The position numbers and the translations under genes were made by a program. Source: Candidatus Hydrogenedentota bacterium (lineage in GTDB: Bacteria > Hydrogenedentota > Hydrogenedentia > Hydrogenedentales > CAILVY01). Taken from it: DNA of 64,000 nt. The stretch covers positions 802-64,801 of the forward strand of contig CAILVY010000207.1 in the NCBI GenBank assembly GCA_903837785.1, read 5' to 3'. Positions within the stretch are counted from its first letter, which is position 1; each line of letters starts with the position of its first letter. Shown piece by piece: positions 36,271 to 58,879 of this stretch. Below the pieces are notes generated by a model that was given only the letters and a program-made list of their open reading frames with translations, was not told where the DNA came from and did no database searches.

Positions 36271-36607
36271 TTGGGCATCCACCTCCCTGATGTGAAACAA
36301 GATCCTGGCGCCATTATAGCTCATCTGTTTTCCCGTTCCCGGCGGCGCCCGCCCGCCGATCCCGGTGTGCAATGCCCGCCTTTCAGTCGAGTCGATAGGG
36401 CCCTCTGCGCCGTGGACGGCGTCTTCCCGTTCCTGCTCTCCTGCGAAACAGTCCGGGGCCGGACGCCCTGCCGTCTCCAACCCGGCAACTTGCCTATTGT
36501 GTTCTCAGCGTATGTGTGCTAGAAATAGACTGTCTCGGATCCTCTGCAACGGGAAGGGCGAAGGCATTTGAGACCCCGTGAGGCGGGGAGGAAAGGCGGG
36601 TGCGGTC

Positions 36608-39600
36608 ATGAAGCGCTTTCATTTGCGACGTGCCGTGGGGTGTGCTGTCTTCTGGGCTGTTGTTATGCTGGTTTCGGGCCTATCCGCCGAAGCACAAACC
36701 CACTCCGCGGATCAGAACGGAGACTACCGCATCGACTTGAGCGAACTCCTGCGGGTGATCCAGTTCTTCAACAGCGGGGGGTATCACTGCGAGGCGGGCT
36801 CCGAGGACGGCTATGCCGCCGCCGCGGGCAGCCAGGCTTGCACCACGCACAGCAGCGACTACGACGGCGGGCCAGACTGGGCCATCAATCTTTCGGAACT
36901 CCTCCGGCTCGTGCAGTTCTATAACACCTGCGGCTACGCCCTCGACGCCGCGGGCGAGGACGGCTTCGCCCCTGTCATCTGCGTCTGGCACGTCAAGCCG
37001 GGCGGCACGGGGACCGGTGGCACGACCTGGGATGACGCGTTCGGTTCCATCCAACAGGCGGTGGACGCAGCCGCCGCCCACCACGGCGGCGAGGTCTGGG
37101 TGGGCGTGGGAACGTACACCGGCACGTCGGACAACGTCGTGGTCATGCGAGAGCAGGTCCAACTCTACGGCGGCTTCGCCGGAACGGAGTCGGATCGGGA
37201 CATGCGGGACTGGAGCGCGCACCCGACGATTATCGATGGCGAAGGCGCCCGGCGCTGCGTTGTCGGTGCGAATGACGCGACCTTGGACGGGTTTGTCGTG
37301 CAAGACGGCTATGTGCTTGGGGAAAGAGGCGGGGGGATGTACAACGCCGGAGGTTCCCCGGTAGTCCGAAACTGTAGGTTCGTCAGGAATGGCGCGCTGG
37401 GTGAGGGATACTGTGATTGCGGGGTGAAACGTGGTTGTTACTTAAACGAGGGCTATGGCGGCGGCATGTATAACAGCTTTTCGTCGCCCATAATTGAGAA
37501 CTGCGTCTTCACCGAAAATGTGGCGGACGGATTCGGCGGGGGGATGTATAACGAGGGCGGCGCTTCCCCTGCCGTGACCAATTGCACGTTTTCCGGGAAT
37601 GAGGCCAAGGTCCTGGGGGCATGTGAGTTCTACTGTTCACTCTGTGATCAATCCGGGGGCTTCGGCGGCGGGATGTACACGACCTCGGGCTCGCCTGTAA
37701 TCACGGGATGTGTCTTCTCGGACAACCGGGCCGAATATGCTGGCGGAGGCCTGTACAGCAACGACACGGTAGCCTTGACAGTGACAGGATGCACCTTCGC
37801 CAACAACTCGGCCGGCGGTGGAGCCGGCCTTCTCAACAATTCGAATTCCGCGGTCATCTCCAACTGCACGTTTACGGGTAACGCGGCAAGCGACTCTGGT
37901 GGCGGGCTGAACTGTGCCTGCAAGTTGAACATGACTGCATGCACCTTCTCAAACAATATGGCAGGCCGTGGTGGCGGGCTGAAATTCTCCGGTCAAACAC
38001 CCAGCACGATCTCGGATTGCGTGTTTACGGACAACTCAGTTAGTCGTCAAGGGGGAGGCATGTTTTTGTCCGGCGGATTGGCCCTATTGAATTGCCGCGT
38101 CTCCCAGAATGCCTCCCTGGAAAACGGCGCAGGCATATACTTGGATCGCTCATCTGTTGCCGTAAGGAATACCGAAATCCTGGGAAATCGAGCGGTTTGC
38201 GGGGGTGGTTTGTACGTGGATTCCGGTTCGAATGCGTTCGAGAATTGTGTGCTGTACGCAAACGCGGCCACATACGGCGGTGGGCTGTACATTTACGGAG
38301 CAACAACGCTTACGGCAATGAACTGTACGCTGGTCCGCAATTCTGCCCAATCTGGAAGGGCATTTTATGCGGATGACAAATCCACCCCATTGTTGACAAA
38401 CTGTATCCTCTGGAACGATCCCGGCGGCGAGATAGGCTTGGGCGGCACGGCAATCGCCACGATAACCTACTCGTGTGTTCAGGGCGGATACGATGGCGTC
38501 GGCAATGTTACCGAAGAACCGCTGTTCCTGGACTCGGATAGCGGAAGTCTCAAACTTCGAACAGGTTCCCCCTGCATTGATACCGGAACAGACTCCGGCG
38601 CGCCGGATACGGACTTCAGCGGAGCGCCGCGCCCGCAAGGCGCCGGACATGACATGGGTGCGTATGAGGGAGCCGTGTCCGAAAGCGATATTGTGCACCT
38701 GAACATCGCCGCATCGCCGGCGGATGCGGGTCGAACCGTTCCCTCCGCAGGGACTCACGCCTGTACCCGGGGATCAATCGCAACAGTCGCCGCTACCGGA
38801 GCAGGGATGCGTTTCGTCCGTTGGGAAGGGGATCTGCCGGCCACTTCTTCCACGATTTCTGTTCCAATGGATAGCGACAAGTCAGTCACCGCCGTCTTCG
38901 AAGGAAATATCAGGTACGTGAACGCGGCGAACGACTCGGGCGTGGAAGATGGGTTTTCGTGGGCGACTGCCTTCCGGGAGATCCAGGCGGCTGTGGATGC
39001 CGCGGCCGCCGACAGAGGAGGCGAAGTCTGGGTCGCGGCCGGAACTTACACAGGCGTATCAGGTCAGGTGCTGACCATGCTGCCCACTGTCTCACTGTAC
39101 GGCGGCTTTGCGGGAATAGAGCTTGTTCGGGCGCAGCGAAACTGGGCTGTACATCGGACCATCATAGACGGTGAAAAGACGCGCCGTTGCCTTGAAGGCT
39201 CAGACGAAGCACGCCTCGACGGGTTCGTTTTGCTGGACGGATATGCCAACCAAGGCGGGGGGATGCGCAATCAACTCTCGTCGCCGGTCGTGGCAAACTG
39301 CACCTTCGACAACAACGTTGCGAGTGATGGCGGCGGCATGTTTAACAATGCTTCAGCGCCGGAAATCGTGGATTGCGTATTTGTCGGCAACAGAGCCGGG
39401 CATAGCGATAGCTCTGATGGGGGGGCTATGTACAACCTGAATTCGAGCCCATCCGTGATCAGGTGCGATTTTTCTGGAAACACAGCCGGTAATGCTGGAG
39501 GTGTGTACAATCTTAAGTCGGCACCCACAGTCATCGACAGCGTGTTCAGTACCAACAGCGCTGTCTACGAGGGCGGCGGCATCTGCAACGGTCGGGAAGC

Positions 39601-41359
39601 CTCGCCTACAGTCACCGGGTGCACATTCTCCGGGAACTCTGCGGAGATTGGGGGTGGTATCCGCAATGATACGAAGTCGTCAGCTATAGTCGCCAATTGC
39701 GAGTTCACCGACAACGCTGCCCTTGGCGGCGCCGGGATCGCGAATTCCGAATCCACGCTCACGCTGATCAATTGTACGTTTTCCAGTGGCAGGTCCGTCT
39801 TCGGCGGCGGGATGTACCTCCAAGATTGTTCTACAGTCCTCTGGAACTGTAGTTTCTCCGGCAATAGGGCGGCCATCGGAGGGGGAGTCTACGGCAGCAG
39901 TGCCGCCCTTTCAGCGTCAAACTGCATTCTGTGGGACAACGGAGAAGGGGAAATCGTCCTCAGATACTCAGTCGACATCAATATCACCTACTCCTGCGTT
40001 CAAGGCGGTTACTCAGGCGCGGGCAATATCGACGCCGACCCGCAGTTGCTGGCCGCAGAGAATGGGCGTGTTCGTGTCCGTGCGGAATCGCCCTGCATCG
40101 ATTCGGGCACGGCCTTGGGAGCACCGTCCACGGATATTCTGGGCGCGCCACGGCCGCAGGGGGCGGGAGTAGATATGGGGGCGTACGAAGGCGGGGTGGC
40201 GGCGTGCGACATCGTTTATCTGGTACTGGCGGCCTCTCCCGAGGCAGGTGGACGAACGATCCCGGCAGCCGGGCTGCACCCCTGTGTACGCGGTTCATCC
40301 ATAGCTGCGTCCGCAGTGGGCCTGGGCATGCGATTTGCCCGCTGGGAAGGGGATGTCTCCTCCCCGGCAAGGGATACGATGATTCTCATGGAAGGCGACA
40401 AGGCCGCCACAGCCGTCTTTGAAACGAATATCCTGCGGGTGGATGCCGCCAACACGGGCTGGGAAGATGGGCTGACCTGGGCGACCGCCTTCCGGACCAT
40501 CCAACCGGCGGTCGATATTGCCGCAAACAATGGCGGCGGCGAGATCTGGGTCGCTCAAAGTGTCTACACGAGCACCTCGGACCCTGTCCTCACGATGAAG
40601 TCATCTGTTGCCCTCTATGGAGGATTTGCGGGAATGGAGAGCAGCCGAATGGAACGGAATTGGGTCGAGCATCCGGTGATAATTGATGGCGCCGGCTATC
40701 GAAGGTGCGTCCACGGGGCGGACGACGCCATTCTCGATGGTTTCTCCGCCAGAAATGGCTTCGGGTCCCGCTCAGATAATCGATATATTTCGAACATGGG
40801 CGGCGCAATGCTCAACTATTGTGTCTCTCCAGTCATTGCGAATTGCGAGTTCTTGGGAAACCGTGCAACTTTTGGCGGCGGATTATGCAACTTGGCAGCG
40901 TTTCCCCTTCTGACTAATTGCGTCTTCTTTGACAACTCCGCAACGGCTCAGGGGGGCGGCATGGACAACTCAGCTTCCATGCCGGTTCTGATTAACTGTA
41001 CGTTCTCGGGAAATGTTGCGACGCGAGGCGGAGGCATGTTCAGTGGGAGTTCTTCTCCTACTGTGACAAACTCCATCTTCTGGAACGACATTGGCGGAGA
41101 CTTCGTCAACGAGTCAGGATCCGGTCCGATCGTCACGTTCTCCTGCATCCAGGGCGGCTACGCGGGCGAGGGCAACATTGAAGCGGATCCGCTGTTTGCC
41201 GATGCGGTGAATGGCGACTTGCGGCTGCAAGCGGGTTCGCCGTGCATTGACACGGGGACGGGAGTGGGCGCGCCGGAAACGGACCTCCTGGGCGTGTTGC
41301 GGCCGCAGGGCGCGGGCTATGACATGGGCGCGTATGAATTTGTGCCTCCGAAGCGCTGA
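36608..41359 (+). CDS. Giant secreted surface protein: N-terminal tandem dockerin-like repeats plus three tandem modules of right-handed parallel beta-helix (PbH1 / choice-of-anchor-Q-like, ending ...DxGAYE), the first two each followed by an InlB-B-repeat-like Ig domain
   Basis: A signal peptide is present. Two 22-aa dockerin-like repeats are seen (DQNGDYRIDLSELLRVIQFFN; DYDGGPDWAINLSELLRLVQFYN). There are many NCTF(S/T)xNxA beta-helix rungs. Each module ends SPCIDTGTxxGAPxTDxxGxxRPQGAGxDMGAYE. Confidence 0.8.
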   Translation: MKRFHLRRAVGCAVFWAVVMLVSGLSAEAQTHSADQNGDYRIDLSELLRVIQFFNSGGYHCEAGSEDGYAAAAGSQACTTHSSDYDGGPDWAINLSELLRLVQFYNTCGYALDAAGEDGFAPVICVWHVKPGGTGTGGTTWDDAFGSIQQAVDAAAAHHGGEVWVGVGTYTGTSDNVVVMREQVQLYGGFAGTESDRDMRDWSAHPTIIDGEGARRCVVGANDATLDGFVVQDGYVLGERGGGMYNAGGSPVVRNCRFVRNGALGEGYCDCGVKRGCYLNEGYGGGMYNSFSSPIIENCVFTENVADGFGGGMYNEGGASPAVTNCTFSGNEAKVLGACEFYCSLCDQSGGFGGGMYTTSGSPVITGCVFSDNRAEYAGGGLYSNDTVALTVTGCTFANNSAGGGAGLLNNSNSAVISNCTFTGNAASDSGGGLNCACKLNMTACTFSNNMAGRGGGLKFSGQTPSTISDCVFTDNSVSRQGGGMFLSGGLALLNCRVSQNASLENGAGIYLDRSSVAVRNTEILGNRAVCGGGLYVDSGSNAFENCVLYANAATYGGGLYIYGATTLTAMNCTLVRNSAQSGRAFYADDKSTPLLTNCILWNDPGGEIGLGGTAIATITYSCVQGGYDGVGNVTEEPLFLDSDSGSLKLRTGSPCIDTGTDSGAPDTDFSGAPRPQGAGHDMGAYEGAVSESDIVHLNIAASPADAGRTVPSAGTHACTRGSIATVAATGAGMRFVRWEGDLPATSSTISVPMDSDKSVTAVFEGNIRYVNAANDSGVEDGFSWATAFREIQAAVDAAAADRGGEVWVAAGTYTGVSGQVLTMLPTVSLYGGFAGIELVRAQRNWAVHRTIIDGEKTRRCLEGSDEARLDGFVLLDGYANQGGGMRNQLSSPVVANCTFDNNVASDGGGMFNNASAPEIVDCVFVGNRAGHSDSSDGGAMYNLNSSPSVIRCDFSGNTAGNAGGVYNLKSAPTVIDSVFSTNSAVYEGGGICNGREASPTVTGCTFSGNSAEIGGGIRNDTKSSAIVANCEFTDNAALGGAGIANSESTLTLINCTFSSGRSVFGGGMYLQDCSTVLWNCSFSGNRAAIGGGVYGSSAALSASNCILWDNGEGEIVLRYSVDINITYSCVQGGYSGAGNIDADPQLLAAENGRVRVRAESPCIDSGTALGAPSTDILGAPRPQGAGVDMGAYEGGVAACDIVYLVLAASPEAGGRTIPAAGLHPCVRGSSIAASAVGLGMRFARWEGDVSSPARDTMILMEGDKAATAVFETNILRVDAANTGWEDGLTWATAFRTIQPAVDIAANNGGGEIWVAQSVYTSTSDPVLTMKSSVALYGGFAGMESSRMERNWVEHPVIIDGAGYRRCVHGADDAILDGFSARNGFGSRSDNRYISNMGGAMLNYCVSPVIANCEFLGNRATFGGGLCNLAAFPLLTNCVFFDNSATAQGGGMDNSASMPVLINCTFSGNVATRGGGMFSGSSSPTVTNSIFWNDIGGDFVNESGSGPIVTFSCIQGGYAGEGNIEADPLFADAVNGDLRLQAGSPCIDTGTGVGAPETDLLGVLRPQGAGYDMGAYEFVPPKR
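36974..38903 (+). repeat. Intragenic tandem module 1 (beta-helix + InlB-B-repeat-like), ~643 aa
   Basis: Starts VICVWHVKPGGTGTGGTTWDDAFGSIQQAVDAAAAHHGGEVWVGVGTYTG. Ends ...MDSDKSVTAVFEGN. Confidence 0.7.
38904..40426 (+). repeat. Intragenic tandem module 2, ~507 aa
   Basis: Starts NIRYVNAANDSGVEDGFSWATAFREIQAAVDAAAADRGGEVWVAAGTYTG. Ends ...MEGDKAATAVFETN. Confidence 0.7.
40427..41356 (+). repeat. Intragenic tandem module 3 (truncated, no Ig domain), ~310 aa
   Basis: Starts NILRVDAANTGWEDGLTWATAFRTIQPAVDIAANNGGGEIWVAQSVYT. Ends ...DMGAYEFVPPKR. Confidence 0.7.
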
Positions 41360-44839: not shown

Positions 44840-46543
44840 CTATGGCGCCGCCACGTTGTGCCGCATCGCGCTCAACGACAGGAGGAGGTCCATGGCTTCC
44901 TTGTTCATGGGGAATTGTGCCTGAGCGGCGTAGCGCCGGAATTCCACGTGTCCGTCCATGCACAGGATGTTCCCGCCCTCCGGATCGTGATGGGGCGCTT
45001 CAATGAGGACAAGAATCTCGGACTGGAGCTTGGCCGACGCGGCCGGGTTATTCCAGTCCGTGATGAAGAAGCGTTCGACCCCTTCCCTCAGGCGATACAG
45101 CGTGCCGCGCGGAGTCTCGATATCGTTCTCCATGGCGAGGCCCTTGCTCATGTGATCCCGGTACGCCTCCGCGAACATTTCGAGTTCTTCGATGCTGTGC
45201 ACGGCATAGCCCAGATAGAAGTAGCTGCCGTTCTCCAGCAATTGCGGACCGCCGGTCTTCAACAGCGGCGCGTTCATCGTGTCGTCCTGACAAATCAGCG
45301 CGCGTGTGTCGCCCAAATACGTGGGAAACACGGGCTTCATGCCCGGATTCTCATTGGCGAACATCAGGTGTCCGGCGCGCGGATCCAGTGCAGGCCAGTA
45401 ATTCCCGGGCGCGTCATTGGCGAACATCTTGAAGGTCAAACCGAGCTGTTTCAGATCGGTCTGGCAGGCCGTCCGCCGCTGATTCTCCCCGTTGAGTGTG
45501 CGCCGGATATTACCCCAGGTGTAGGCCACGCTATTGCCCACATCGCTCAGGAGGGAAAGACCGCCGCGCGCGAGGTCGGGGGTTGCGTCCCTGATCGGGG
45601 CGGGCTGCCTGTCCTGCGTTGGCCCAGAAGCAGAAATCCGGTTCAGGTCCCGGCGCGTGAGGGTTTCGGGAACCGCGTTTTCCGCCGCTTCCGGACGCTT
45701 CGCGGGTGCTGCGGCCGGCGTCTCGGAGGGGGCGTTCGCGGGGGCGGGCTGCTGTATCCGTTGCGCTTCTACCGCATGGGGTTCCGCCCGGTGCGGTGCG
45801 CGGTTGAACTCCCAGCCCGCGAACAGGAGCACGGCCACGCCGGCCGCCGCGGCCACGAGCGTCTTGGCGCTCCATACGCCTGCCGCGGCTGCGGCGGGCA
45901 AGGTTACATGCCCGGCTCCGCTCAGGGCGAGTTTCCCCAAGTTCGCGAGCACCGCGGACGGCATCGCCACGGCCGAGTCGGCTGTCATAGCGGCCGTCAG
46001 TGCCGCCGCCGTGACGGCGACCCCTTTCCCTTTGAGGGACTTGCGCAGGCATTCGACGCCTCTGTCCACGCGATACGTGACAGTCGAGCGCGGGATGCCC
46101 AGCGTCTGCGCGGCGGCCTCATGGGTCTTGCCGTCGAGGAAACAGGCCACGACCGGGATACGCAGTTTCTCGGGCAGTTCGGCGATGGCTTCATCGACCA
46201 GGCCGCCGACCTCGTCCCAGGGCCGGTCGTGGGTGGCTTGCTGTTCGGAGGCGAAACGAAGTTCGCGGTCCTTGCGGCGATGTTCGGAGCGCAATCGCGC
46301 GATGGAACGGTTGTACGCCACGCGGTGGAGCCACGGCGCCAGGTAGCCGCCGACCGGCTTGCGCGTGGCGGCCAGGATCACGAAGCACTCCTGGGTCACG
46401 TCTTCCGCTTCTGAAGGGTTGTTGAGTATCCGGCAACAGGTCTGATAGACCATTGCGGCATAGCGTCCCGCCAGCACCTTAAAGGCGTCCGCGTCGCGCT
46501 TCCGCAGCCAGTTCTCGAAGAGGTTGGCATCCGTTGGGCTCAT
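44840..46543 (-). CDS. ECF (sigma-70 family) RNA polymerase sigma factor fused through a single TM helix to a C-terminal DUF1559 domain
   Basis: The N-terminal ~190 aa carry sigma region 2 (LAPWLHRVAYNRS) and region 4 (HEAAAQTLGIPRSTVTYRV). A TM helix (VAAAAGVAVLLFAGW) follows. The C-terminal ~230 aa are paralogous to the downstream DUF1559 gene ([13 protein letters not shown]..., TLYRLREGVERFFITDWNNPAASAKLQSEI, GGNILCMDGHVEF). Confidence 0.7.
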   Translation of the reverse strand: MSPTDANLFENWLRKRDADAFKVLAGRYAAMVYQTCCRILNNPSEAEDVTQECFVILAATRKPVGGYLAPWLHRVAYNRSIARLRSEHRRKDRELRFASEQQATHDRPWDEVGGLVDEAIAELPEKLRIPVVACFLDGKTHEAAAQTLGIPRSTVTYRVDRGVECLRKSLKGKGVAVTAAALTAAMTADSAVAMPSAVLANLGKLALSGAGHVTLPAAAAAGVWSAKTLVAAAAGVAVLLFAGWEFNRAPHRAEPHAVEAQRIQQPAPANAPSETPAAAPAKRPEAAENAVPETLTRRDLNRISASGPTQDRQPAPIRDATPDLARGGLSLLSDVGNSVAYTWGNIRRTLNGENQRRTACQTDLKQLGLTFKMFANDAPGNYWPALDPRAGHLMFANENPGMKPVFPTYLGDTRALICQDDTMNAPLLKTGGPQLLENGSYFYLGYAVHSIEELEMFAEAYRDHMSKGLAMENDIETPRGTLYRLREGVERFFITDWNNPAASAKLQSEILVLIEAPHHDPEGGNILCMDGHVEFRRYAAQAQFPMNKEAMDLLLSLSAMRHNVAAP

Positions 46544-46822
46544 GGCACGTTCCTTTGCTCAGATTAGCGCCTCGTTCGCTTCCGTACAAGTAATACCGCT
46601 GACGGGCAATCTGGCCAAAGACGGGTCTGGAATGTCTTGCGCTTAATGAATGCGGTGCTTCCGGGCAAGAGCGGGGGCTTCAAGCGCTGCCTGGATGGAG
46701 GGTACTGACCCGTAACGGGCGGGTCGCGGCCGGCCCGATGGACCATGGAGAGGGCGCAGGGGCATTTCCTGGCTCCTGTATCGCTGCGCCACGGAGGGCA
46801 TCGCCTGTTTGAAATGCACCCG

Positions 46823-47743
46823 CTAGAGGGATTGCACGATCCCGATCAGGGTGGCAAATGCTCTCGTAACAGGATGCGTTGAGGGATACTTCAGGAATGC
46901 GACGTGTCCATCCATGAACAGGATGTTCGACCCTCCGGGAATGTGATTCATCGTGTCGAGCTCGTTCGTGGTCAGGTTGTCGCCCATGATGAAGATCTCA
47001 CTCTGGGCTTTGGCGGTGGCGGCGGGGTTGTTGATGTCCGTGATGAAGAAACGTTCGATGCCTTCCCGGAGCCGGTACAGGATTACGGTCTTGCCCAGGG
47101 ACTCATGGAAGAACTCCTGGTCTTCATCCTCGAGGAGTCCCGCGGCGGCGGGCGACTCCGCCGCTTCCACTTTCGTCATCAGGTCCATGAGTTTGACAAT
47201 GAACGACGGCTCGATGTTGGGGCCGACCGCGTCCATGAGACTGGGTATGTGCGGGTCATTGGGATCGGAGCCGGCAGTAATCAGGTGGTCCTGACTCAGG
47301 GTGACCCACAGATAGAAATAGGAGTGGTCCGAGAAGAGACACGGACAGACCGGATTGGACATCCTGTCCGCATTGGGCGTGCTGCAATGGAACTTGCCCT
47401 CCTCGAGCACCCGGGAGCCATCGGCATCGGAGGGGCAGACCGTGACCTTCTCATCCGTCAAGTATTCCGGGAACACGGACGGGCCGTCGAACGACATGGC
47501 CGTCAGGCCCTTCTGCGTGCAAAGCTCGCCTTGCCGGTAGTTGATGTTGGGGTATTTCTGCCCATTGGATTCGTTGGCATACATCTTGAACGTCAGGCCC
47601 AGTTGCTTGAGATTGTTCTGGCAGCTTGCGCGTCGTGCTGACTCGCGCGCCCGCGCCAGAGCGGGAAGGAGAATGGCGGCAAGAATGCCGATGATGGCGA
47701 TGACGACAAGAAGTTCGATCAGTGTGAAGCCGTTCCGTTTCAT
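46823..47743 (-). CDS. DUF1559 protein with prepilin-type N-terminal cleavage/methylation domain (type II secretion pseudopilin-like)
   Basis: [25 protein letters not shown] is followed by the DUF1559 core ([13 protein letters not shown]...; ...[16 protein letters not shown]...[13 protein letters not shown]). The start was chosen at [11 protein letters not shown] (47743). Confidence 0.8.
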
Positions 47744-51870: not shown

Positions 51871-51986
51871 GAAATGTCACCAGGAGCCGTGATTCGGGGA
51901 CGAGAATTGTCATTTGGGGCCGGAGTGAGCGCTTTGGCCGGCCCATAACCCGTGATTTCCCCTGAAAAATGGGGGATTTGGCATCT

Positions 51987-52002
51987 TGGCACGGCGGTTG
52001 CT
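51987..52002 (+). promoter_or_regulatory. Sigma-54 (RpoN) -24/-12 promoter TGGCACG-N4-TTGCT driving the pilin gene
   Basis: Reads cTTGGCACGGCGGTTGCTc, an exact match to the RpoN consensus YTGGCACG-N4-TTGCW. Sits ~90 nt upstream of ATG 52094. Confidence 0.55.
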
Positions 52003-52093
52003 CAAATGCTACCTGAAAGTTGAGAACACGCTGGCGGGCCGGGATTTCCCCGGAGCGCGCCAAACCACCACACCAACCTGGGAGGATAGGGTT

Positions 52094-52549
52094 ATGAAGA
52101 AATCAGGGTTCACATTGATTGAGTTGATGATTGTCGTGGCCATTATCGCAATCATCGCGGCTATCGCCATCCCGAACCTGCTCCGTTCCCGGATGCAGTC
52201 CAATGAATCGGCGGCCATCGGCAACCTGCGGACGATCTGCGGCGCGGAAGTCGCCTATCACTCGGCCAACTATCAGTATGCGGCCACCTTTGACGCGTTG
52301 ACCACGCCGCCGGCGGCGGGCGCTCCGGCCTATCTCGATGGCGCGTGGAACGTCACGAAGAGCGGCTACACGTACACGCTGGGTGCGGGCGCGGGCGCGG
52401 CCGGTTCGAGCTTCGCGGCCAACGCGGATCCCGAAGTGATGAACACGACGGGCAGCAAGGGCTTCTTCGTGGATGCGAGCGGCGTCATCCGCTATGCGGT
52501 AGGCGCGGCTGCCGATGCGAACAGCGCCCCGATCGGACAGACGAGCTGA
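52094..52549 (+). CDS. Type IV pilin / pseudopilin (prepilin-type N-terminal methylation domain)
   Basis: MKKSGFTLIELMIVVAIIAIIAAIAIPNL has the G-1/F+1/E+5 prepilin signature. A GGAGGA RBS lies upstream. Length is 151 aa. Confidence 0.8.
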   Translation: MKKSGFTLIELMIVVAIIAIIAAIAIPNLLRSRMQSNESAAIGNLRTICGAEVAYHSANYQYAATFDALTTPPAAGAPAYLDGAWNVTKSGYTYTLGAGAGAAGSSFAANADPEVMNTTGSKGFFVDASGVIRYAVGAAADANSAPIGQTS

Positions 52550-52666: not shown

Positions 52667-54271
52667 ATGAATCGGCGTGCATTCATGCAGGGTGTCGCGG
52701 GTACCTTGGCGGCCACAGCGCTCGGAACCCGGGGAAGCGCCGGTGCGGAACCGGCCAAACCCGCGGGCAGGCGGCCCAACATCGTGGTCATTCTCGCCGA
52801 TGACATGGGTTTCTCCGACCTCGGCTGCTATGGCTCGGAGATTCAGACGCCAAACCTCGACGGCCTTGCGGCACAGGGACTCCGCTTCACGCAGGCGTAC
52901 TCCGCCGCGCGCTGCTGTCCCTCGCGCGCCGCGCTGCTCACGGGCCTTTACCCGCATCAGGCGGGCATGGGCGACATGGTCGGCACGGCGAAGAAGCCCC
53001 GGCCGGCCGGACCCTATCAAGGCTACCTCAACCGCCAGTGCGTGACGATTGCGGAAATGCTGCGCACGGCGGGTTACCGGACGTACATGTCGGGGAAATG
53101 GCACGTGGGCGAAGCACCCGAGTATTGGCCGCGCAAACGAGGGTTTGACCGCTACTTCGGCCTGATCAGCGGGGCCAGCTCCTACTTTGGGATTCGCGAG
53201 GAAGAGCGCAAGACCCGCATCATGGCCTGCGACGATACCCGCTTCGTGCCGGAGGGCGATCATTTCTACATGACCGACGCGTTCACGGATCATGCGGTCC
53301 AGTATCTTGAGGAGCATGGCCGTTCCGAGACGCCGTTCTTCCTCTATCTCGCGTACACCGCGCCGCACTGGCCGCTGCATGCATGGCCGGAAGACATCGA
53401 GCGGTACAAGGGTTCTTACCGCATCGGGTGGGACGCCCTCCGGGAGCAGCGCTACCGGCGCCAGCTCGACTTGGGCATCATCAACCCGAAATGGCCCTTG
53501 TCACCGCGCGATGAAGAGGTTCCGCCCTGGGACAGCGTCGAGAACAAGGACGACTGGGATCTGCGGATGGCGGTCTATGCGGCCATGATCAGCCGGATGG
53601 ATCGCGGCATTGGCCGGGTCTTGGAGACGCTGCACAAGCTCGGCGCGGACGAGAACACGCTCGTCCTCTTCATGTCCGACAACGGCGGGTGCCACGAGCG
53701 GATCGACCAGCGGAACCTCAACAAACCGGGCGCCAAGCCGGGCGAGCGGGACTCCTTCGTCGCGTACGAACGGCCGTGGGCCACGGCCAGCAACACTCCC
53801 TTCCGCCTTTTCAAGCATTGGGTGCACGAGGGGGGCATCGCATCGCCGCTCATCGCCCGCTGGCCAGGGCGTATTCGCGAGACCGGCGCGTTGACCCATC
53901 AGGTCAGCCACATCACCGACATCCTGCCCACCTGCCTCGACCTGGCCGGCATCGAGTATCCCGCCTCGTTTGAGGGCAATGCCATCACGCCACTGGCCGG
54001 AAAGAGCCTGCTTCCGGTTCTCGAAGGCAAGACCCGCGAGGCACATCAACGCCTGTTCTGGGAACATGAGAAGAACAAGGCCGTTCGCGAGGGACAATGG
54101 AAACTTGTGGCAACGGCCCGGGGCCAATGGGAGCTCTACGATCTCGAGGCCGACCGCACGGAACTCCACGACCTGGCGAAGCAACAGCCCGAGAAGGCCG
54201 CGGCGTTGCTGCAGGCTTGGGAGGATTGGGCGCGCCGCATCGGTGTTCAGATGGCGGGACAGGAGACTTGA
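52667..54271 (+). CDS. Arylsulfatase (formylglycine-dependent sulfatase, Tat signal)
   Basis: Tat motif (NRRAFMQG). The sulfatase signature CCPSRAALLTG (C-x-P-x-R) and GKWH are present. Length is 534 aa. Confidence 0.9.
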   Translation: MNRRAFMQGVAGTLAATALGTRGSAGAEPAKPAGRRPNIVVILADDMGFSDLGCYGSEIQTPNLDGLAAQGLRFTQAYSAARCCPSRAALLTGLYPHQAGMGDMVGTAKKPRPAGPYQGYLNRQCVTIAEMLRTAGYRTYMSGKWHVGEAPEYWPRKRGFDRYFGLISGASSYFGIREEERKTRIMACDDTRFVPEGDHFYMTDAFTDHAVQYLEEHGRSETPFFLYLAYTAPHWPLHAWPEDIERYKGSYRIGWDALREQRYRRQLDLGIINPKWPLSPRDEEVPPWDSVENKDDWDLRMAVYAAMISRMDRGIGRVLETLHKLGADENTLVLFMSDNGGCHERIDQRNLNKPGAKPGERDSFVAYERPWATASNTPFRLFKHWVHEGGIASPLIARWPGRIRETGALTHQVSHITDILPTCLDLAGIEYPASFEGNAITPLAGKSLLPVLEGKTREAHQRLFWEHEKNKAVREGQWKLVATARGQWELYDLEADRTELHDLAKQQPEKAAALLQAWEDWARRIGVQMAGQET

Positions 54272-54673: not shown

Positions 54674-55936
54674 ATGGCAAGATGGCGGACATGGTTACCG
54701 GGCGGGCCGGGCAAGGGGCGCGCGCAACGCGCGGCGGGAAACACGTCTTCACCGGCGGGCGTGTTTCGGACGGCGTCGCGGGCGGAGGACATGACGGGGT
54801 TCGGCACGATGCTGGACGCGTTCGTGCCACTTCCGAACGCGACGCCGTTTGGCATGTTGCAGGTGTACCGGTTTCTGCGGGATGCGATTCCGGACATTTC
54901 AGACGCGGTGTGGACGTGGAAGCGGCTGTGCCAGACGGGCTTTGACGTCGAGGTGACGGAAGCGAGTTCGGAGGCCGCGTCGCGGCGTGCGGAGCGGCTG
55001 CTGACGGGCCTGAACGAGCGGGTGAACAGCGGCGACCGCGGGATGGACGGACTCCTCGACATCTTCTACACGTCTTTGTTCACGTATGGCGCCGCGGCGC
55101 TCGAGATCGTGCTCACTCAGAGCCGGGAATCGATTTGGGACGTGGTGCCGGTGGACGTGTGGACGGTGCGTTTCAAGCGGGAGTCGGGGCGGCTCCAAGC
55201 CTATCAGGTGCATGACGGGGAAACGATTCCATTGCCGATGGACCGGTTCATCTACGTGGGAATGGACCGGGACGGGACGAACCCCTATGGGCGGTCGATG
55301 CTGCGAAGCATTCCGTTCGTAGTGAAGATCCAGCAGCGGCTGATCGAGGACATGGCAAAGGCGACGCACAATGCCGGGTGGTCCAAGCTGCACGTGCAAT
55401 ACGTACCCGATGCGCGGGCGCGGGGAGAGTCGCAGGAACACTATCAGGCGCGGTTGGCCGGGAACTTCGAGTCGCTTCGCTCGAAGCTGACCGGACTGGA
55501 GACGGACCAGAACCTGGTGACGTACGACAACGTGAAGGTTTCGTTGTTGCGCGGGGACCAGCAGTCGCAGGTGTTTTACGGGAACCACAAGGCGATCGAG
55601 GAACAGGTGATCACGGGGATGCACCTGATGCCGATTCTCCTGGGCCGGAATTACGGGACGACGGAGACGTATGGCACGGCGCAATTCGAGATCGTGAACC
55701 GGCAGGTGGAGGCGGTAAACCGGAGTGTCCAGCGTATTCTGGAGCGCCTCTACAACTTCGAACTGGCGCTGATGTGGGGCGAAGCGAAGGCGCAGGTTCA
55801 CTTTCGCCACAACCGGACGGTGGACGTGTTGAAGGAGGCCCAGGCGCGATCAAAGGAAATCGAGAGCGCACTGCTCCTAAAGGACCGCGGCCTCATCGAC
55901 GCCAAGGAAGCCGCGAAGCGGCTGGGAGCGGTGTGA
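54674..55936 (+). CDS. Phage portal-like protein (call made from position and size; start uncertain, alternative ATG at 54791)
   Basis: A ~380-420-aa protein with a charged helical C-terminus lies immediately upstream of the scaffold/decoration/capsid genes. This is a synteny- and size-based call, not a motif-based one. Confidence 0.45.
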   Translation: MARWRTWLPGGPGKGRAQRAAGNTSSPAGVFRTASRAEDMTGFGTMLDAFVPLPNATPFGMLQVYRFLRDAIPDISDAVWTWKRLCQTGFDVEVTEASSEAASRRAERLLTGLNERVNSGDRGMDGLLDIFYTSLFTYGAAALEIVLTQSRESIWDVVPVDVWTVRFKRESGRLQAYQVHDGETIPLPMDRFIYVGMDRDGTNPYGRSMLRSIPFVVKIQQRLIEDMAKATHNAGWSKLHVQYVPDARARGESQEHYQARLAGNFESLRSKLTGLETDQNLVTYDNVKVSLLRGDQQSQVFYGNHKAIEEQVITGMHLMPILLGRNYGTTETYGTAQFEIVNRQVEAVNRSVQRILERLYNFELALMWGEAKAQVHFRHNRTVDVLKEAQARSKEIESALLLKDRGLIDAKEAAKRLGAV

Positions 55937-56286
55937 TGTTGCCTGCGGCGGCGATTACGGGAACCGGCAGCGTGCTACAGGAAATGCACGATGAGCCAGA
56001 ATGCGATCTCGCCCAGCGTGAGCACACTGAAGATCGTCAGCAGCTTCTTGTCCAGAGGCGAGCCACCCTCGAGCGCACGGGACCACAGCCAGCCAAAGGG
56101 GCGCGGCGCGTTGCAGCAGGGGGAGGATCTCTCCGAGTCGGGGACCGGCTGCATGCAGTCCGGGCGCAAGGGAGTTTCAAGCTCCCGGGTGACTTTCTCA
56201 ATGCCGTCGTTTCCCAGCATGTGTCGCGCCTTTGCCGTGCCGGCTCTGCCGTGCCTGAACGTGTCAACGACTCGATCTACACCTGA
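55936..56286 (+). CDS. Possible small ORF (116 aa) translationally coupled to the portal-like gene (gtgATGa overlap)
   Basis: ATG overlaps the portal-like stop. It fills the otherwise 390-nt gap. Composition is low-complexity and Arg/Ala-rich, so it may be spurious. Confidence 0.25.
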   Translation: MLPAAAITGTGSVLQEMHDEPECDLAQREHTEDRQQLLVQRRATLERTGPQPAKGARRVAAGGGSLRVGDRLHAVRAQGSFKLPGDFLNAVVSQHVSRLCRAGSAVPERVNDSIYT

Positions 56287-56326
56287 AACCGCGTGCGCAT
56301 TCGCACGCCAAGAAGAGGAGCGGAGT

Positions 56327-57367
56327 ATGAGCATGGAGCTTGAACCCTTTGTCTTCCGGCACGAGGGAACCGTAATCGGAATGCGGACGAATCCGGAGGC
56401 GGGGCCGGCGTCGGACGAGGAGGTGTTGCTGGCGGCGGTGAACCGTTTTGCGCTGCGGCCGCTGCGCCGGGATGAGTTCGCGGTGTTTTCGCTCGATTTG
56501 TGCCACAACCAGATCGACAAGCACTTCAGCCGATTCCCTGATGAGGAGCTGGAGAAGATTGACCGGATGACGCCGGGACGGCCGCTGATGGAACGGCATG
56601 ACCTGCGCGGTTCGCTGCCGCGCGGAACCTTCTTCCGCTCGCAGTTGCACCGGGACGAGGCACGGTTGGCGGTGCGGCCCGACGTCTATGTGCTGCGGAC
56701 GGCGGAGAACACGGATTTCATATTGAACATCGAGGGCGGCGTGTACCGGGAGACGTCGATCGGCTTTTCCTTCCGGCTGCCGGAATGCTCGATCTGCGGG
56801 AAGGACATCCGGACCTGCGATCACGTCCCCGGGCGGTCGTACGGGCAGCAACTCTGCTACTTCACGATGCGGGATGTGCTCGACGTCATCGAAGGCTCGG
56901 TGGTGCCTTCGGGATCGCAGGGCACGGGGTTTGTCACGCAGGAGCGCGCGCTGGCGTTGCCGGCGGCGCTCGAAGCGGCGCGCAAGGCGTATCACATGCC
57001 GATCGAAGTGCACGGCGGGGTGGAAGACGCACCGGAAGCGCGCGCGCTGCTCGAGGCGATGGAGGCGCACCGCCTGGCGCCGGGCCAGGTGGCGCAGGCG
57101 GTGGACGACGGCCTGGAAGCGCGGCGGCGGGCGGTGGAACGGTTTTGCGGGCTGGGACGGGAACTGGATGGGCTCGCGTTCGATGAGACGGTTTGGCGGC
57201 GGACACTTGAGCCGCTCACCCTTCGGGAAATTCACCGGCACTTGTCGGCGTATGAGATCCGCTTCGATCAGAAGTACCCGCCCCAGCCCGTATCGCGTCC
57301 GGAACCCCTTCCGGACAGCGGGCCAAAGGGGGTTTCGGAGAGAGCGATGGCGATTCTGCGGGCGTAG
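56327..57367 (+). CDS. Putative prohead scaffold/protease-like protein (lambda gpC/Nu3 position) with a Cys4-type zinc-ribbon-like cluster
   Basis: AAGAGGAG RBS. The C-terminus is helical and Ala/Glu/Arg-rich, so scaffold-like. A CSICGKDIRTCDH cluster is present. Assignment is by position only. Confidence 0.35.
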   Translation: MSMELEPFVFRHEGTVIGMRTNPEAGPASDEEVLLAAVNRFALRPLRRDEFAVFSLDLCHNQIDKHFSRFPDEELEKIDRMTPGRPLMERHDLRGSLPRGTFFRSQLHRDEARLAVRPDVYVLRTAENTDFILNIEGGVYRETSIGFSFRLPECSICGKDIRTCDHVPGRSYGQQLCYFTMRDVLDVIEGSVVPSGSQGTGFVTQERALALPAALEAARKAYHMPIEVHGGVEDAPEARALLEAMEAHRLAPGQVAQAVDDGLEARRRAVERFCGLGRELDGLAFDETVWRRTLEPLTLREIHRHLSAYEIRFDQKYPPQPVSRPEPLPDSGPKGVSERAMAILRA

Positions 57368-57431
57368 CGGCCGGCCACAAGGCCGGCACTCCGCGGAACC
57401 AGGCAGCAACAGCAACAAGAGGAGACACACG

Positions 57432-57812
57432 ATGGCATTCGGAGACGTGGGCGGAGCCGTGACGGAGTTGATCGTCACGTGCATGACGCCGGAACAGGGA
57501 TCGGTGAACATTCGCAAGGGCGACGCCCTCAAGCTCACCGGCGGGTACGAAATCAGCAATGTGACCGACGCGGAGGACGCGGTGTTCGGCCAGGCGATGG
57601 CGGACAGCGCGCTGAACGGCGCGGCCATTCCGGTGAAGGTGCGGGGGATCTGCATCTTCGCCTACACGGGCGATGCGCCCGTGGTGGACGGCGTGAAGGG
57701 CATCCTCGCGTCGGCAACCGACGGGAAGGTGAAGGCGCCCGCGGCGGGGAACGGCGCGGGCATCAATCTGATGGTGGACACGACGGCGGGCACGGTGAAC
57801 GTGCTGCTGTAA
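57432..57812 (+). CDS. DUF2190-like head decoration protein (lambda gpD position)
   Basis: A 126-aa Gly/Ala/Val-rich beta protein sits immediately upstream of the capsid gene. AGAGGAGAC RBS. Confidence 0.5.
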   Translation: MAFGDVGGAVTELIVTCMTPEQGSVNIRKGDALKLTGGYEISNVTDAEDAVFGQAMADSALNGAAIPVKVRGICIFAYTGDAPVVDGVKGILASATDGKVKAPAAGNGAGINLMVDTTAGTVNVLL

Positions 57813-57826
57813 GAAAGGAACGAACG

Positions 57827-58879
57827 ATGGTGTATGACAGCAGTCTGATGAAGGATCAGGCGCGCTTCCTGACGCAGCCGCAGGAGACGCTGCGCGCGAT
57901 GCGGGGGCGCGAACTGTACGAGACGCTCGGGTCGCTCGGGCTGAACCACACGCACTATTTCCGCGCGCTCGGCACGAACGTGCAGGATTACTGCGCGCAG
58001 GAGTTCGGGATCGACCTGGGTCGGATCACCGTGGAGCGCTTCTTCCAGTCGGACCCGGGCGCGAAATGGCTCTTTCCGGACGTGGTGCGGGAGGCGGTGG
58101 TCGCGGGAATGACCCGCAAGCCCGCGTATCCCAGGCTCATCATCCGGGACGAGCACATCTCGAGCGTGGCCTATGACGTGCCGTACGTGGAAGAGAACGA
58201 CGCGAACGAGGAACTGCGGCACGTGGCCGAGGGCGCGGCGATCCCGGAATCGGAGATCACGTATGGGGACCGCGTGGTGAAGCTGGAGAAACTGGGGCGG
58301 GGCGTCATCGCGTCCTACGAGGTGATCCGGCGGATGTCGGTGGACATGCTGCGCGTGCATCTGCAGCGCATCGGGGAGAATCTCGGCCGGAACCTGGACG
58401 CGCGGCTGGCCGCCGTGCTGGTGAACGGGGACAATTCCGGGGCCGGAACCGCCGCGGCGGTGCTGAACACGCACACGGCGAACACGTGGGCGTACCGCGA
58501 TCTCGTGGCGGGCTTCAACAAGCTCACGCTCGAGCATTACTTCACGCCGACGCACATGCTGGCGAACGCGGAGACGCTCGAAGCGATCCTCGACCTCGAC
58601 GAGATCAAGGACAGCGCGCTCTTTGATTTCGCCAAGACGGGCAACCTGCCGACGCCCCTCGGCGTGAATCTGGTGCCGATGGCGGATCAGCCGGCAAACC
58701 AGATCACGATTCTGGATGCGCAGTACGCGGTGCAGAAGCTGACCGAACAGGATCTGCTGGTGGAAAGCGACAAGCTCATCAACCAGCAGTGGGATCGCAC
58801 CTACCTGACGGTCGTCACGGACTTCGCGATTATCTACGCGAAGGCCCGAATCGTTCTGAACAGCGCCTGGCAGGCGTAG
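57827..58879 (+). CDS. Phage major capsid protein (lambda gpE-like / HK97-fold)
   Basis: The 350-aa protein sits at the gpE position after a decoration-like gene. The segment ...AIPESEITYGDRVVKLEKLGRGVIASYEVIRRMSVDMLRVHLQRIGENLGRNLDARLAAVLVNG... resembles capsid protein E-like families. Confidence 0.55.
   Translation: MVYDSSLMKDQARFLTQPQETLRAMRGRELYETLGSLGLNHTHYFRALGTNVQDYCAQEFGIDLGRITVERFFQSDPGAKWLFPDVVREAVVAGMTRKPAYPRLIIRDEHISSVAYDVPYVEENDANEELRHVAEGAAIPESEITYGDRVVKLEKLGRGVIASYEVIRRMSVDMLRVHLQRIGENLGRNLDARLAAVLVNGDNSGAGTAAAVLNTHTANTWAYRDLVAGFNKLTLEHYFTPTHMLANAETLEAILDLDEIKDSALFDFAKTGNLPTPLGVNLVPMADQPANQITILDAQYAVQKLTEQDLLVESDKLINQQWDRTYLTVVTDFAIIYAKARIVLNSAWQA

Follow-up and report, generated by a model that had tools for sequence, protein, structure and literature searches.

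The 64-kb stretch of contig CAILVY010000207.1 analysed here (64,000 nucleotides, hereafter the window) encodes a 567-residue protein in which an extracytoplasmic function (ECF) sigma factor is joined, through a hydrophobic helix, to a domain related to the prepilin-type protein of the adjacent gene. The locus raises the question of what such a domain does at the end of a sigma factor. An earlier note on this DNA had proposed a membrane-tethered sigma factor with an extracytoplasmic DUF1559 domain, linked to envelope stress and to the regulation of DUF1559 genes. We find that the fusion gene (44840..46543, reverse strand, stop codon included) is real and conserved, and is not a frameshift artefact. 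With a probability of about one half, the protein is a one-protein transmembrane device, a membrane-tethered ECF sigma factor with an extracytoplasmic H-X9-DG module, released by regulated proteolysis.

An intact and conserved fusion gene

The open reading frame comprises 567 codons with no interruption, and the G+C content at third codon positions (GC3) in the annotated frame lies between 0.74 and 0.96 across every segment of the fusion. The identical 567-residue protein was found on 9 contigs, and the DNA of L001 and L002, which come from different samples, translates to an exact match. A search for further fusions of this kind, as the earlier note had advised, yielded 14 full-length orthologues of 565–595 residues, with 52–60% identity and 98–100% of the length aligned. 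Their parts stand in the same order, namely ECF sigma regions 2 and 4, one hydrophobic helix, a Pro/Ala-rich spacer and a domain of 230 residues.

The check for a frameshift artefact, also advised there, bears on the possibility that an assembly or sequencing error, or a pseudogene, has joined two separate genes. Versions in two parts do occur elsewhere and speak for it. In the L167 lineage, an in-frame TAG lies within the Pro/Ala spacer (GLAINP-stop-ALKRFQASS, L167:1386-1440) on at least 5 contigs from several samples, dividing the orthologue, without a change of frame, into a 326-residue sigma–transmembrane protein (P0016) and an intact module reading frame of 230 residues (P0069); the stop marks either a truncation of natural origin or a site of possible read-through. 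In P0017 the frame is lost after the transmembrane helix, and its module has been called separately as P0068, on a contig equal in length. These split versions are derived, and the intact fusion is the common state. An artefact is rejected because the identical protein occurs in independent assemblies, 14 intact orthologues share its architecture and the coding-frame GC3 is continuous; such an origin is therefore highly improbable.

Conservation was compared between the segments of the 15 fusions. Mean pairwise identity was 0.85 for sigma region 2, 0.79 for region 4, 0.65 for the juxtamembrane segment (residues 173–222), 0.57 for the transmembrane helix (223–247), 0.28 for the spacer (248–339) and 0.59 for the C-terminal module (340–567). 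Since the module is as conserved as the transmembrane and juxtamembrane parts, and the spacer is not, both ends of the protein are under selection. Two genomes carry tandem full-length paralogues, of 586 and 575 residues on the contig of P0012 and P0006 and of 576 and 577 residues on that of P0008; the copies of a pair lie on the same strand with ~250 bp between them. In a further protein, P0129 (203 residues), the first 88 residues of the sigma part run straight into the final ~125 residues of the module; the probable cause is a chimera formed in assembly or an internal deletion in a fusion gene.

A full-length profile of the 15 fusions was compared with 1.84 billion representatives of clusters at 50% identity, of which only one, P0003, matched over the full length. 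The fusion family is thus narrow and rare, forming one cluster at this level of identity. A scan of GTDB species representatives gave only partial (sigma–transmembrane) relatives among the matches listed, and a scan of JGI metagenomes gave, among the matches listed, one additional full-length copy, whose upstream sequence is that of L086.

The sigma part

The presence of sigma-70 regions 2 and 4 at the N-terminus, stated in the earlier note, was confirmed by profile searches. Region 2 (residues 26–89; 46277..46468, reverse strand as for all features of this gene) matched Pfam PF04542 with 36.2 bits (cutoff 24). Region 4 (residues 116–168; 46040..46198) matched PF08281 (Sigma70_r4_2) over residues 116–166 with 39 bits (cutoff 25.7), as well as PF04545, and the NCBIfam model TIGR02937 (sigma70-ECF) scored 53.5 bits against a cutoff of 42.9. 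No matches to sigma-70 region 1 or 3 were obtained with Pfam or NCBIfam. The NCBIfam equivalog and subfamily models all stayed far under their cutoffs, the best being PRK12519 with 84 bits against 222. The nearest solved relatives of the sigma part are SigW (5wuq, E 7e-16) and SigE. An AlphaFold2 (AF2) model of residues 1–260, calculated from an alignment of 112 sequences, had a mean predicted local distance difference test score (pLDDT) of 84, with values above 90 in regions 2 and 4. The N-terminus of the fusion is a bona fide ECF (group 4) sigma factor.

Juxtamembrane segment, transmembrane helix and spacer

Region 4 is followed by a conserved juxtamembrane segment (residues 173–222; 45878..46027) with the motif G174 ... 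P195 ... LGKLALSG ... P216, the residues of which are invariant across the fusions. The G174...P195...LGKLAL part is also kept across the wider sigma–transmembrane family, as seen in the consensus of the A4/A5 alignments. In the AF2 model the segment forms helices at residues 179–192 (pLDDT ~80) and 196–207 (~50), with a low-confidence stretch at 202–225. No anti-sigma domain was matched in the fusion with Pfam (no zf-HC2, RskA or FecR). The HxxxCxxC motif of zinc-binding anti-sigma (ZAS) domains was not found between region 4 and the transmembrane helix, there being no cysteine in residues 166–359.

The single hydrophobic helix of the earlier description is recovered in 15 of the 15 family members as one hydropathy peak, the only one above 1.6, at residues ~223–247 (45803..45877). 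The predicted segment has a Kyte-Doolittle value of 1.85 in the fusion, and AF2 places a helix at residues 227–247 with a pLDDT of ~83. A second transmembrane helix at residues 175–193, which would place the module in the cytoplasm, was considered and rejected as unlikely, since its value is 1.48, it is inconsistent across homologues and it contains Lys/Asp. Beyond the membrane helix lies a variable Pro/Ala/Arg-rich spacer (residues 248–339; 45527..45802), predicted to be extracytoplasmic. Its length ranges from 80 to 99 residues across the 15 fusions; in the fusion of the window, its 92 residues include 18 Ala, 13 Pro and 10 Arg.

A conserved segment next to the membrane would also suit a sigma factor that works without being released, either at the membrane in the manner of ToxR or CadC, or through a conformational or oligomeric change transmitted through the transmembrane helix to the juxtamembrane segment, which would then be a built-in short anti-sigma element. 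The conservation of its ~50 residues within and beyond the fusions, a size close to that of a two-helix inhibitory element and the predicted helix 179–192 directly after region 4 are consistent with this explanation, and ECF41/42-type C-terminal extensions are known to regulate by contact with the core (PMC7826278). However, a sigma factor must join the RNA polymerase core and reach promoters, and no membrane-bound sigma factor has been documented to work in this way. Moreover, a disordered spacer of 90 residues would be a poor transmitter of a conformational signal, and neither Pfam nor sequence comparison matches the segment to an anti-sigma domain. Activity without release therefore appears unlikely, and release of the sigma part by proteolysis is the reading that we prefer.

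The origin of the transmembrane helix was examined through the relatives of the sigma part. Among the best 150 matches of the fusion profile, more than 100 cover only profile positions 1 to ~250–330, that is, the sigma, juxtamembrane and transmembrane parts, in proteins of 300–1460 residues. The C-termini of 55 such relatives include CarboxypepD_reg, Big_1, Dioxygenase_C-like, WD40, serpin and GDSL lipase domains, among others, and by local hidden Markov models (HMMs) both the sigma cassette and the module were found in the narrow fusion family only. Because a cassette that includes the transmembrane helix is common to more than 100 representative clusters with unrelated ectodomains, the helix belongs to this sigma–juxtamembrane–transmembrane cassette and not to a pilin.

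The earlier proposal, that the sigma factor replaces a prepilin leader while the pilin's transmembrane helix is retained, does not agree with this assignment, and no relic of a prepilin leader is detectable. Homology to pilin-type proteins begins at residue ~353, some 105 residues past the end of the helix. A prepilin profile made from 28 segments (G/FTLIE up to the conserved Cys) gave an alignment with the fusions over no more than its final 8 positions, ‘E.ARR.SC’. No prepilin or pseudopilin features were found in the fusion, which has no N_methyl match, no cleavage motif and no hydropathy peak within residues 250–567. As a candidate relic of the prepilin site, ‘GGLSLLSDV’ (residues ~326–334) was considered together with the helix before C360 as a decayed alpha1-N. 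It was rejected, as the profile matched nothing but the ‘E.ARR.SC’ end and MAFFT kept the regions apart.

The C-terminal H-X9-DG module

The globular module (residues 340–567; 44843..45526) is characterized by its helices, the pair C360...C418, the block YRLREGVERFFITD and the motif H519-X10-D530-G531-H532. Its collinearity with the neighbouring gene product, claimed from three shared sequence blocks, was borne out by a BLASTP alignment of residues 360–538 with residues 41–286 of the neighbour (35% identity, E 2e-33, composition-based statistics). As this E value is adjusted for composition and all three blocks are present, the similarity reflects homology and is not compositional.

The name DUF1559 is another matter. 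On the C-terminal 233 residues the Pfam model PF07596 (DUF1559/SBP_bac_10) gave 13.2 bits (E 0.095, profile positions 5–27 of 268), under its cutoff of 23.3, and two fusion orthologues carry ‘faint’ precomputed matches to it. TIGR04294, with a cutoff of 19 bits, did not match the fusion, yet H519-X10-D530-G531-H532 is spaced as H267-X10-DGH in the neighbour. Kinship with DUF1559, as traced through the neighbour and profile A2 rather than through the Pfam model, is real, and the name holds only insofar as the module, a member of a divergent H-X9-DG subfamily, is a divergent relative. The architecture and the likely topology of a membrane-tethered sigma factor, with the sigma part inside and the module outside, stand as first proposed, and the DUF1559 label does not.

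Both cysteines, C360 and C418, are found in every fusion and with few exceptions across the module family, and the same holds for H519, D530, G531 and H532. An AF2 model of residues 335–567, obtained with an alignment of 127 sequences, had a pLDDT of 94.3 and a predicted template modelling score (pTM) of 0.88. It shows two N-terminal helices (model residues 2–17 and 19–43), an alpha/beta domain and a C-terminal helix. Foldseek found no fold match to this model in the PDB.

Using residues 320–567 as the query, 1352 homologues of the module were found. Fragments of the fusion family come first; the closest of the others are proteins of 240–275 residues with a Sec signal peptide or a lipobox (45–56% identity), followed by proteins that combine a zinc ribbon with a DUF4190 membrane domain (42–49%). 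Canonical prepilin-type proteins, including the neighbour (P0183), are more distant (33–39%). Elsewhere the module stands after DUF3352 or TPR regions or before a redoxin domain. In large secreted proteins (P0190, of 1239 residues, P0191, P0192, P0195, P0198 and P0196) it occurs in 2–5 tandem copies, each opening with a ‘C(Q/A)NNLKQ’ helix, which is hard to reconcile with the role of a pilus subunit. Because its nearest relatives are Sec-secreted, lipoprotein, DUF4190-anchored or tandem-repeat forms, the module is an extracytoplasmic domain in its own right, which has kept no more of the pilin helix than its soluble half.

Among the named relatives of the module, most are Candidatus Hydrogenedentes, one of the best sigma–transmembrane matches among the species representatives is a Hydrogenedentota metagenome-assembled genome, and a housekeeping-type enzyme encoded in the window has its best named match, at 79% identity, in Hydrogenedentes too. 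Judged by these names, the source probably belongs to the Hydrogenedentota and not to the ‘PVC bacteria’. Prepilin-type DUF1559/SBP_bac_10/H-X9-DG proteins of Planctomycetes and relatives (PMC8567305) share with the fusion the motif of the alpha1-C helix, the YRLREG..FF.TD block and the C-terminal H-X10-DGH motif. They differ in that the fusion lacks the prepilin cleavage motif and the hydrophobic alpha1-N, falls under the Pfam threshold with no TIGR04294 hit, and has a foreign transmembrane anchor ~115 residues upstream. SBP_bac_10 proteins with Sec signal peptides in place of prepilin leaders have been noted in a planctomycete proteome study (PMC8567305).

It might be argued that the ectodomain is no sensor at all, and that a duplicated sigma–transmembrane cassette was fortuitously inserted before an H-X9-DG gene, the module serving as a bulky periplasmic anchor or stabiliser, or as a dock to a pilus or secretion apparatus. 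Many unrelated C-terminal extensions of planctomycetal ECF sigma factors have been gained by ‘fortuitous insertion’ (Pinto et al. 2020, PMC7671368), and the cassette found here likewise bears very different C-termini. The restriction of the fusion to one 50%-identity cluster among 1.84 billion representatives, and the premature in-frame stop before the module on at least 5 contigs of one lineage, point in the same direction. On the other hand, the module has stayed intact over 52–60% divergence with its family-wide key residues kept, it has been duplicated in tandem together with the sigma part, and it is without the hydrophobic pilin helix needed for pilus assembly. Furthermore, P0318 (702 residues) has the same sigma–transmembrane cassette and a long ectodomain with a reduced module (CQNNLKQ...NVLFFDGHV) at its end, and is a second, independent case of an ECF–transmembrane protein combined with this kind of module. 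A chance fusion with an inert module is thus improbable, and the protein is better described as a tethered sigma factor whose module may take part in its release.

Upstream block and promoter search

A promoter-like block, TTGGCC-N17-TATTAC (core GCGGTATTAYT), lies 76 nt upstream of the start codon (46586..46618) and is invariant in the orthologues. It is kept in five lineages, those of the window, L003, L005, L086 and L167, the upstream sequence of L087 being that of L086. All fusion orthologues with available DNA have it ~76 nt before the start, with the consensus TTGGCs-A-A--G------C-GCGGTATTAyT. The block may be read as a −35 element TTGGCC, a 17-nt spacer and a −10 element TATTAC, and it is unique in the window (1 found, 0 expected).

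The leader between the −10-like block and the start codon (46544-46585, reverse strand, in the window; L003:7953-8000; L005:3712-3758; L167:366-407) holds a short hairpin, which has perfect pairing in three orthologues (TGTGTGGAAACACACA or TGTGTGAAAACAC) and imperfect pairing in the window (GTACGGAAGCGAAC), and which could be a conserved element of the 5′ untranslated region.

A Gibbs search of the upstream regions of nine wider-family genes and the window gave a related two-block motif, tTTGssC-N12-13-GCGGTG/GGCGTC, at a consistent distance to the start codons. Its score of 145.6, compared with 135.7 ± 1.9 for shuffled sequences, is a modest statistical result, and the motif may be a family-specific, possibly autoregulated promoter. 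With a position weight matrix (PWM), the sequence in front of the neighbouring DUF1559 gene scored 2.6 at best, as against 15.3 at the fusion's own site. No promoter motif is thus shared with the neighbour, and the idea that the sigma factor regulates DUF1559 genes finds no footing here; the fusion has its own predicted promoter, and on this evidence nothing appears to link it to the regulation of its neighbour.

Proposed mode of action and comparison with known systems

A sigma factor has to be in the cytoplasm, and export signals are found on relatives of the module; we therefore infer an N-in/C-out topology. Regions 2 and 4 and the juxtamembrane segment of ~50 residues would lie in the cytoplasm, one Ala/Gly-rich helix would cross the membrane, and the flexible Pro/Ala-rich spacer of ~90 residues would hold the H-X9-DG domain of 230 residues, DUF1559-related and pilin-derived, in the periplasm. 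Such a protein may have arisen from two mobile pieces. One would be the sigma–juxtamembrane–transmembrane cassette, which bears many ectodomains in this and related phyla; the other would be the autonomous extracytoplasmic module, elsewhere exported as a prepilin, a Sec-secreted protein, a lipoprotein, a DUF4190-anchored protein or a tandem repeat.

As long as it remains tethered, the sigma factor would be unavailable for productive use. A ligand or partner that binds to the ectodomain or leaves it, or another event there, might expose the spacer to a periplasmic protease, after which a site-2 protease would cut within the transmembrane helix and free the sigma domain to direct transcription. 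A separate anti-sigma factor would not be needed.

Membrane-anchored ECF sigma factors with extracytoplasmic C-terminal extensions have already been described as IutY, ECF52/53 and ECF57 (PMC7826278, PMC7671368, PMC8999054), and C-terminal extensions of ECF sigma factors correlate with the absence of an anti-sigma factor (PMC8999054, PMC5411451, PMC7826278). IutY of Pseudomonas putida, a FecI-like ECF243 protein and sigma/anti-sigma hybrid, resembles the fusion in that one polypeptide comprises an N-terminal ECF sigma factor, one transmembrane helix and a periplasmic C-terminal domain, with no separate anti-sigma factor. Its sigma part is freed by sequential proteolysis by Prc and then RseP (PMC5411451, PMC8999054), a route that may apply to the fusion by analogy only. 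However, the extension of IutY is an anti-sigma domain of the FecR type that receives its signal from a TonB-dependent receptor, whereas the fusion has no FecR domain and no TonB-dependent receptor was found among the fusion neighbours that were read.

Actinobacterial ECF52/ECF53 proteins such as SCO4117 (PMC8999054) likewise combine a sigma factor, a membrane helix, an extracytoplasmic Pro-rich region and a globular binding domain, and proteolytic activation has been proposed for them. In contrast to the fusion, they possess a ZAS anti-sigma motif and 1–2 transmembrane helices, and they belong to another phylum and have other ectodomains. In planctomycetal ECF57 (formerly ECF01-Gob; PMC7671368; Casas-Pastor et al. 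2021, PMC7826278) a conserved sigma core carries many C-terminal domains (WD40 and others) in several copies per genome, the extensions having arisen by duplication and capture of neighbouring sequence; the fusion is likened to this group by its described architecture. The portions of the published planctomycetal ECF descriptions available to us mention no DUF1559/SBP_bac_10 extension, and in the literature searched no sigma factor was found described with an ectodomain of the H-X9-DG/DUF1559 type.

Several observations weigh against the release of a tethered sigma factor. Release by proteolysis is proposed purely by analogy. The transmembrane helix is predicted from hydropathy and AF2 only, and is moderately hydrophobic (Kyte-Doolittle 1.4–2.2). 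For the juxtamembrane segment there is no match to a known anti-sigma domain, and model confidence is low at residues 196–225. The truncation before the module in the L167 lineage may mean that the ectodomain is dispensable. Finally, the block upstream of the gene looks more like a sigma70 promoter than the classic AAC/CGT promoter of ECF sigma factors, and no second site for the orthologue or family PWM, hence no other target promoter, was found in the 64-kb window or the orthologous loci.

Genomic context

The neighbouring gene (46823..47743, reverse strand), the distant paralogue of the module in the window, encodes a prepilin-type DUF1559/H-X9-DG protein of 306 residues (P0183). It starts with MKRNG/FTLIE and matches N_methyl with 36 bits, in agreement with the pseudopilin N-terminus ascribed to it, and it has all the features of a type IV prepilin, namely a short leader, a cleavage/methylation motif and a hydrophobic alpha1-N helix. 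Its DUF1559/SBP_bac_10 match of 43.4 bits spans profile positions 2–37 only, and TIGR04294 (H-X9-DG) gives 25.8 bits. The fusion and this gene are the only two module-bearing genes in the window. Their adjacency, which had been offered as a functional clue, was not seen in any other genomic context read, and at 35% identity the neighbour is more distant than the Sec-secreted forms of the module (45–56%). A conserved gene pair was accordingly rejected.

Other genes recur beside the fusion. A divergent sulfatase and a GDSL esterase lie upstream in the P0004, P0008 and P0016 lineages, a GDSL esterase upstream of P0012/P0006, an HZS_alpha/FGE-sulfatase protein upstream of P0007 and a hydrolase upstream of P0003. 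The window has a sulfatase of 534 residues 6 kb from the fusion, and also encodes GH38, GH2, GFO/IDH oxidoreductase, ThuA and PSCyt2/PSD1 proteins. No anti-sigma gene was present in any fusion context read. Since the recurrent neighbours are sulfatases, GDSL esterases, an FGE-sulfatase domain protein and glycoside hydrolases, the context suggests an input related to glycans or sulfated polysaccharides rather than the envelope stress proposed before. It is conceivable, if somewhat doubtful, that the module is a genuine periplasmic ligand- or partner-binding domain, the input of a one-component transmembrane sigma factor that controls a regulon for the utilization of sulfated glycans.

In several environmental phyla, few protein families are as expanded and as poorly understood as that of the DUF1559/H-X9-DG proteins. 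That the module is the sole extracytoplasmic part of a conserved sigma factor, and that its nearest relatives are not pilins, suggests that the globular part is an autonomous periplasmic module and not necessarily a pilus subunit. If it does bind a ligand or partner, this would be the first functional handle on a family with dozens to hundreds of copies in Planctomycetota, Hydrogenedentota and relatives, and many ‘pilin-like’ DUF1559 proteins would be soluble or anchored binding proteins. The main value of the fusion may lie in this hint and in a possible assay, with sigma activity as the read-out of what the module recognises. For ECF biology it adds one more ectodomain, in a likely Hydrogenedentota example, to tethered sigma factors without a separate anti-sigma factor. 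The wider claim concerning the regulation of DUF1559 genes is not carried forward because the fusion is rare and no link to such regulation was found.

Other genes of the window were noted in passing. A 1593-residue protein with Chlamydia PMP repeats, an InlB B-repeat-like domain and DUF5123 (36578-41359, forward strand) is probably a large surface or secreted adhesin-like protein; its gene lies upstream of the ThuA, xylose-isomerase-like and PSCyt2-PSD1 genes. A second prepilin-type gene (51986-52549, forward strand), starting MKKSG/FTLIELMIVVAIIAIIAAIAIPNLL..., is unrelated, having an N_methyl match only and no H-X9-DG module, and stands directly upstream of the 534-residue sulfatase gene (52667-54271). 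Just downstream of the latter, genes for a Mu-like portal protein (PF06074; 54674-55936) and for a phage capsid protein (PF25209; 57479-58879) stand beside reading frames without a Pfam match, and this region (54674-58879, forward strand) looks like a prophage, a remnant of one or a gene-transfer-agent-like cluster.

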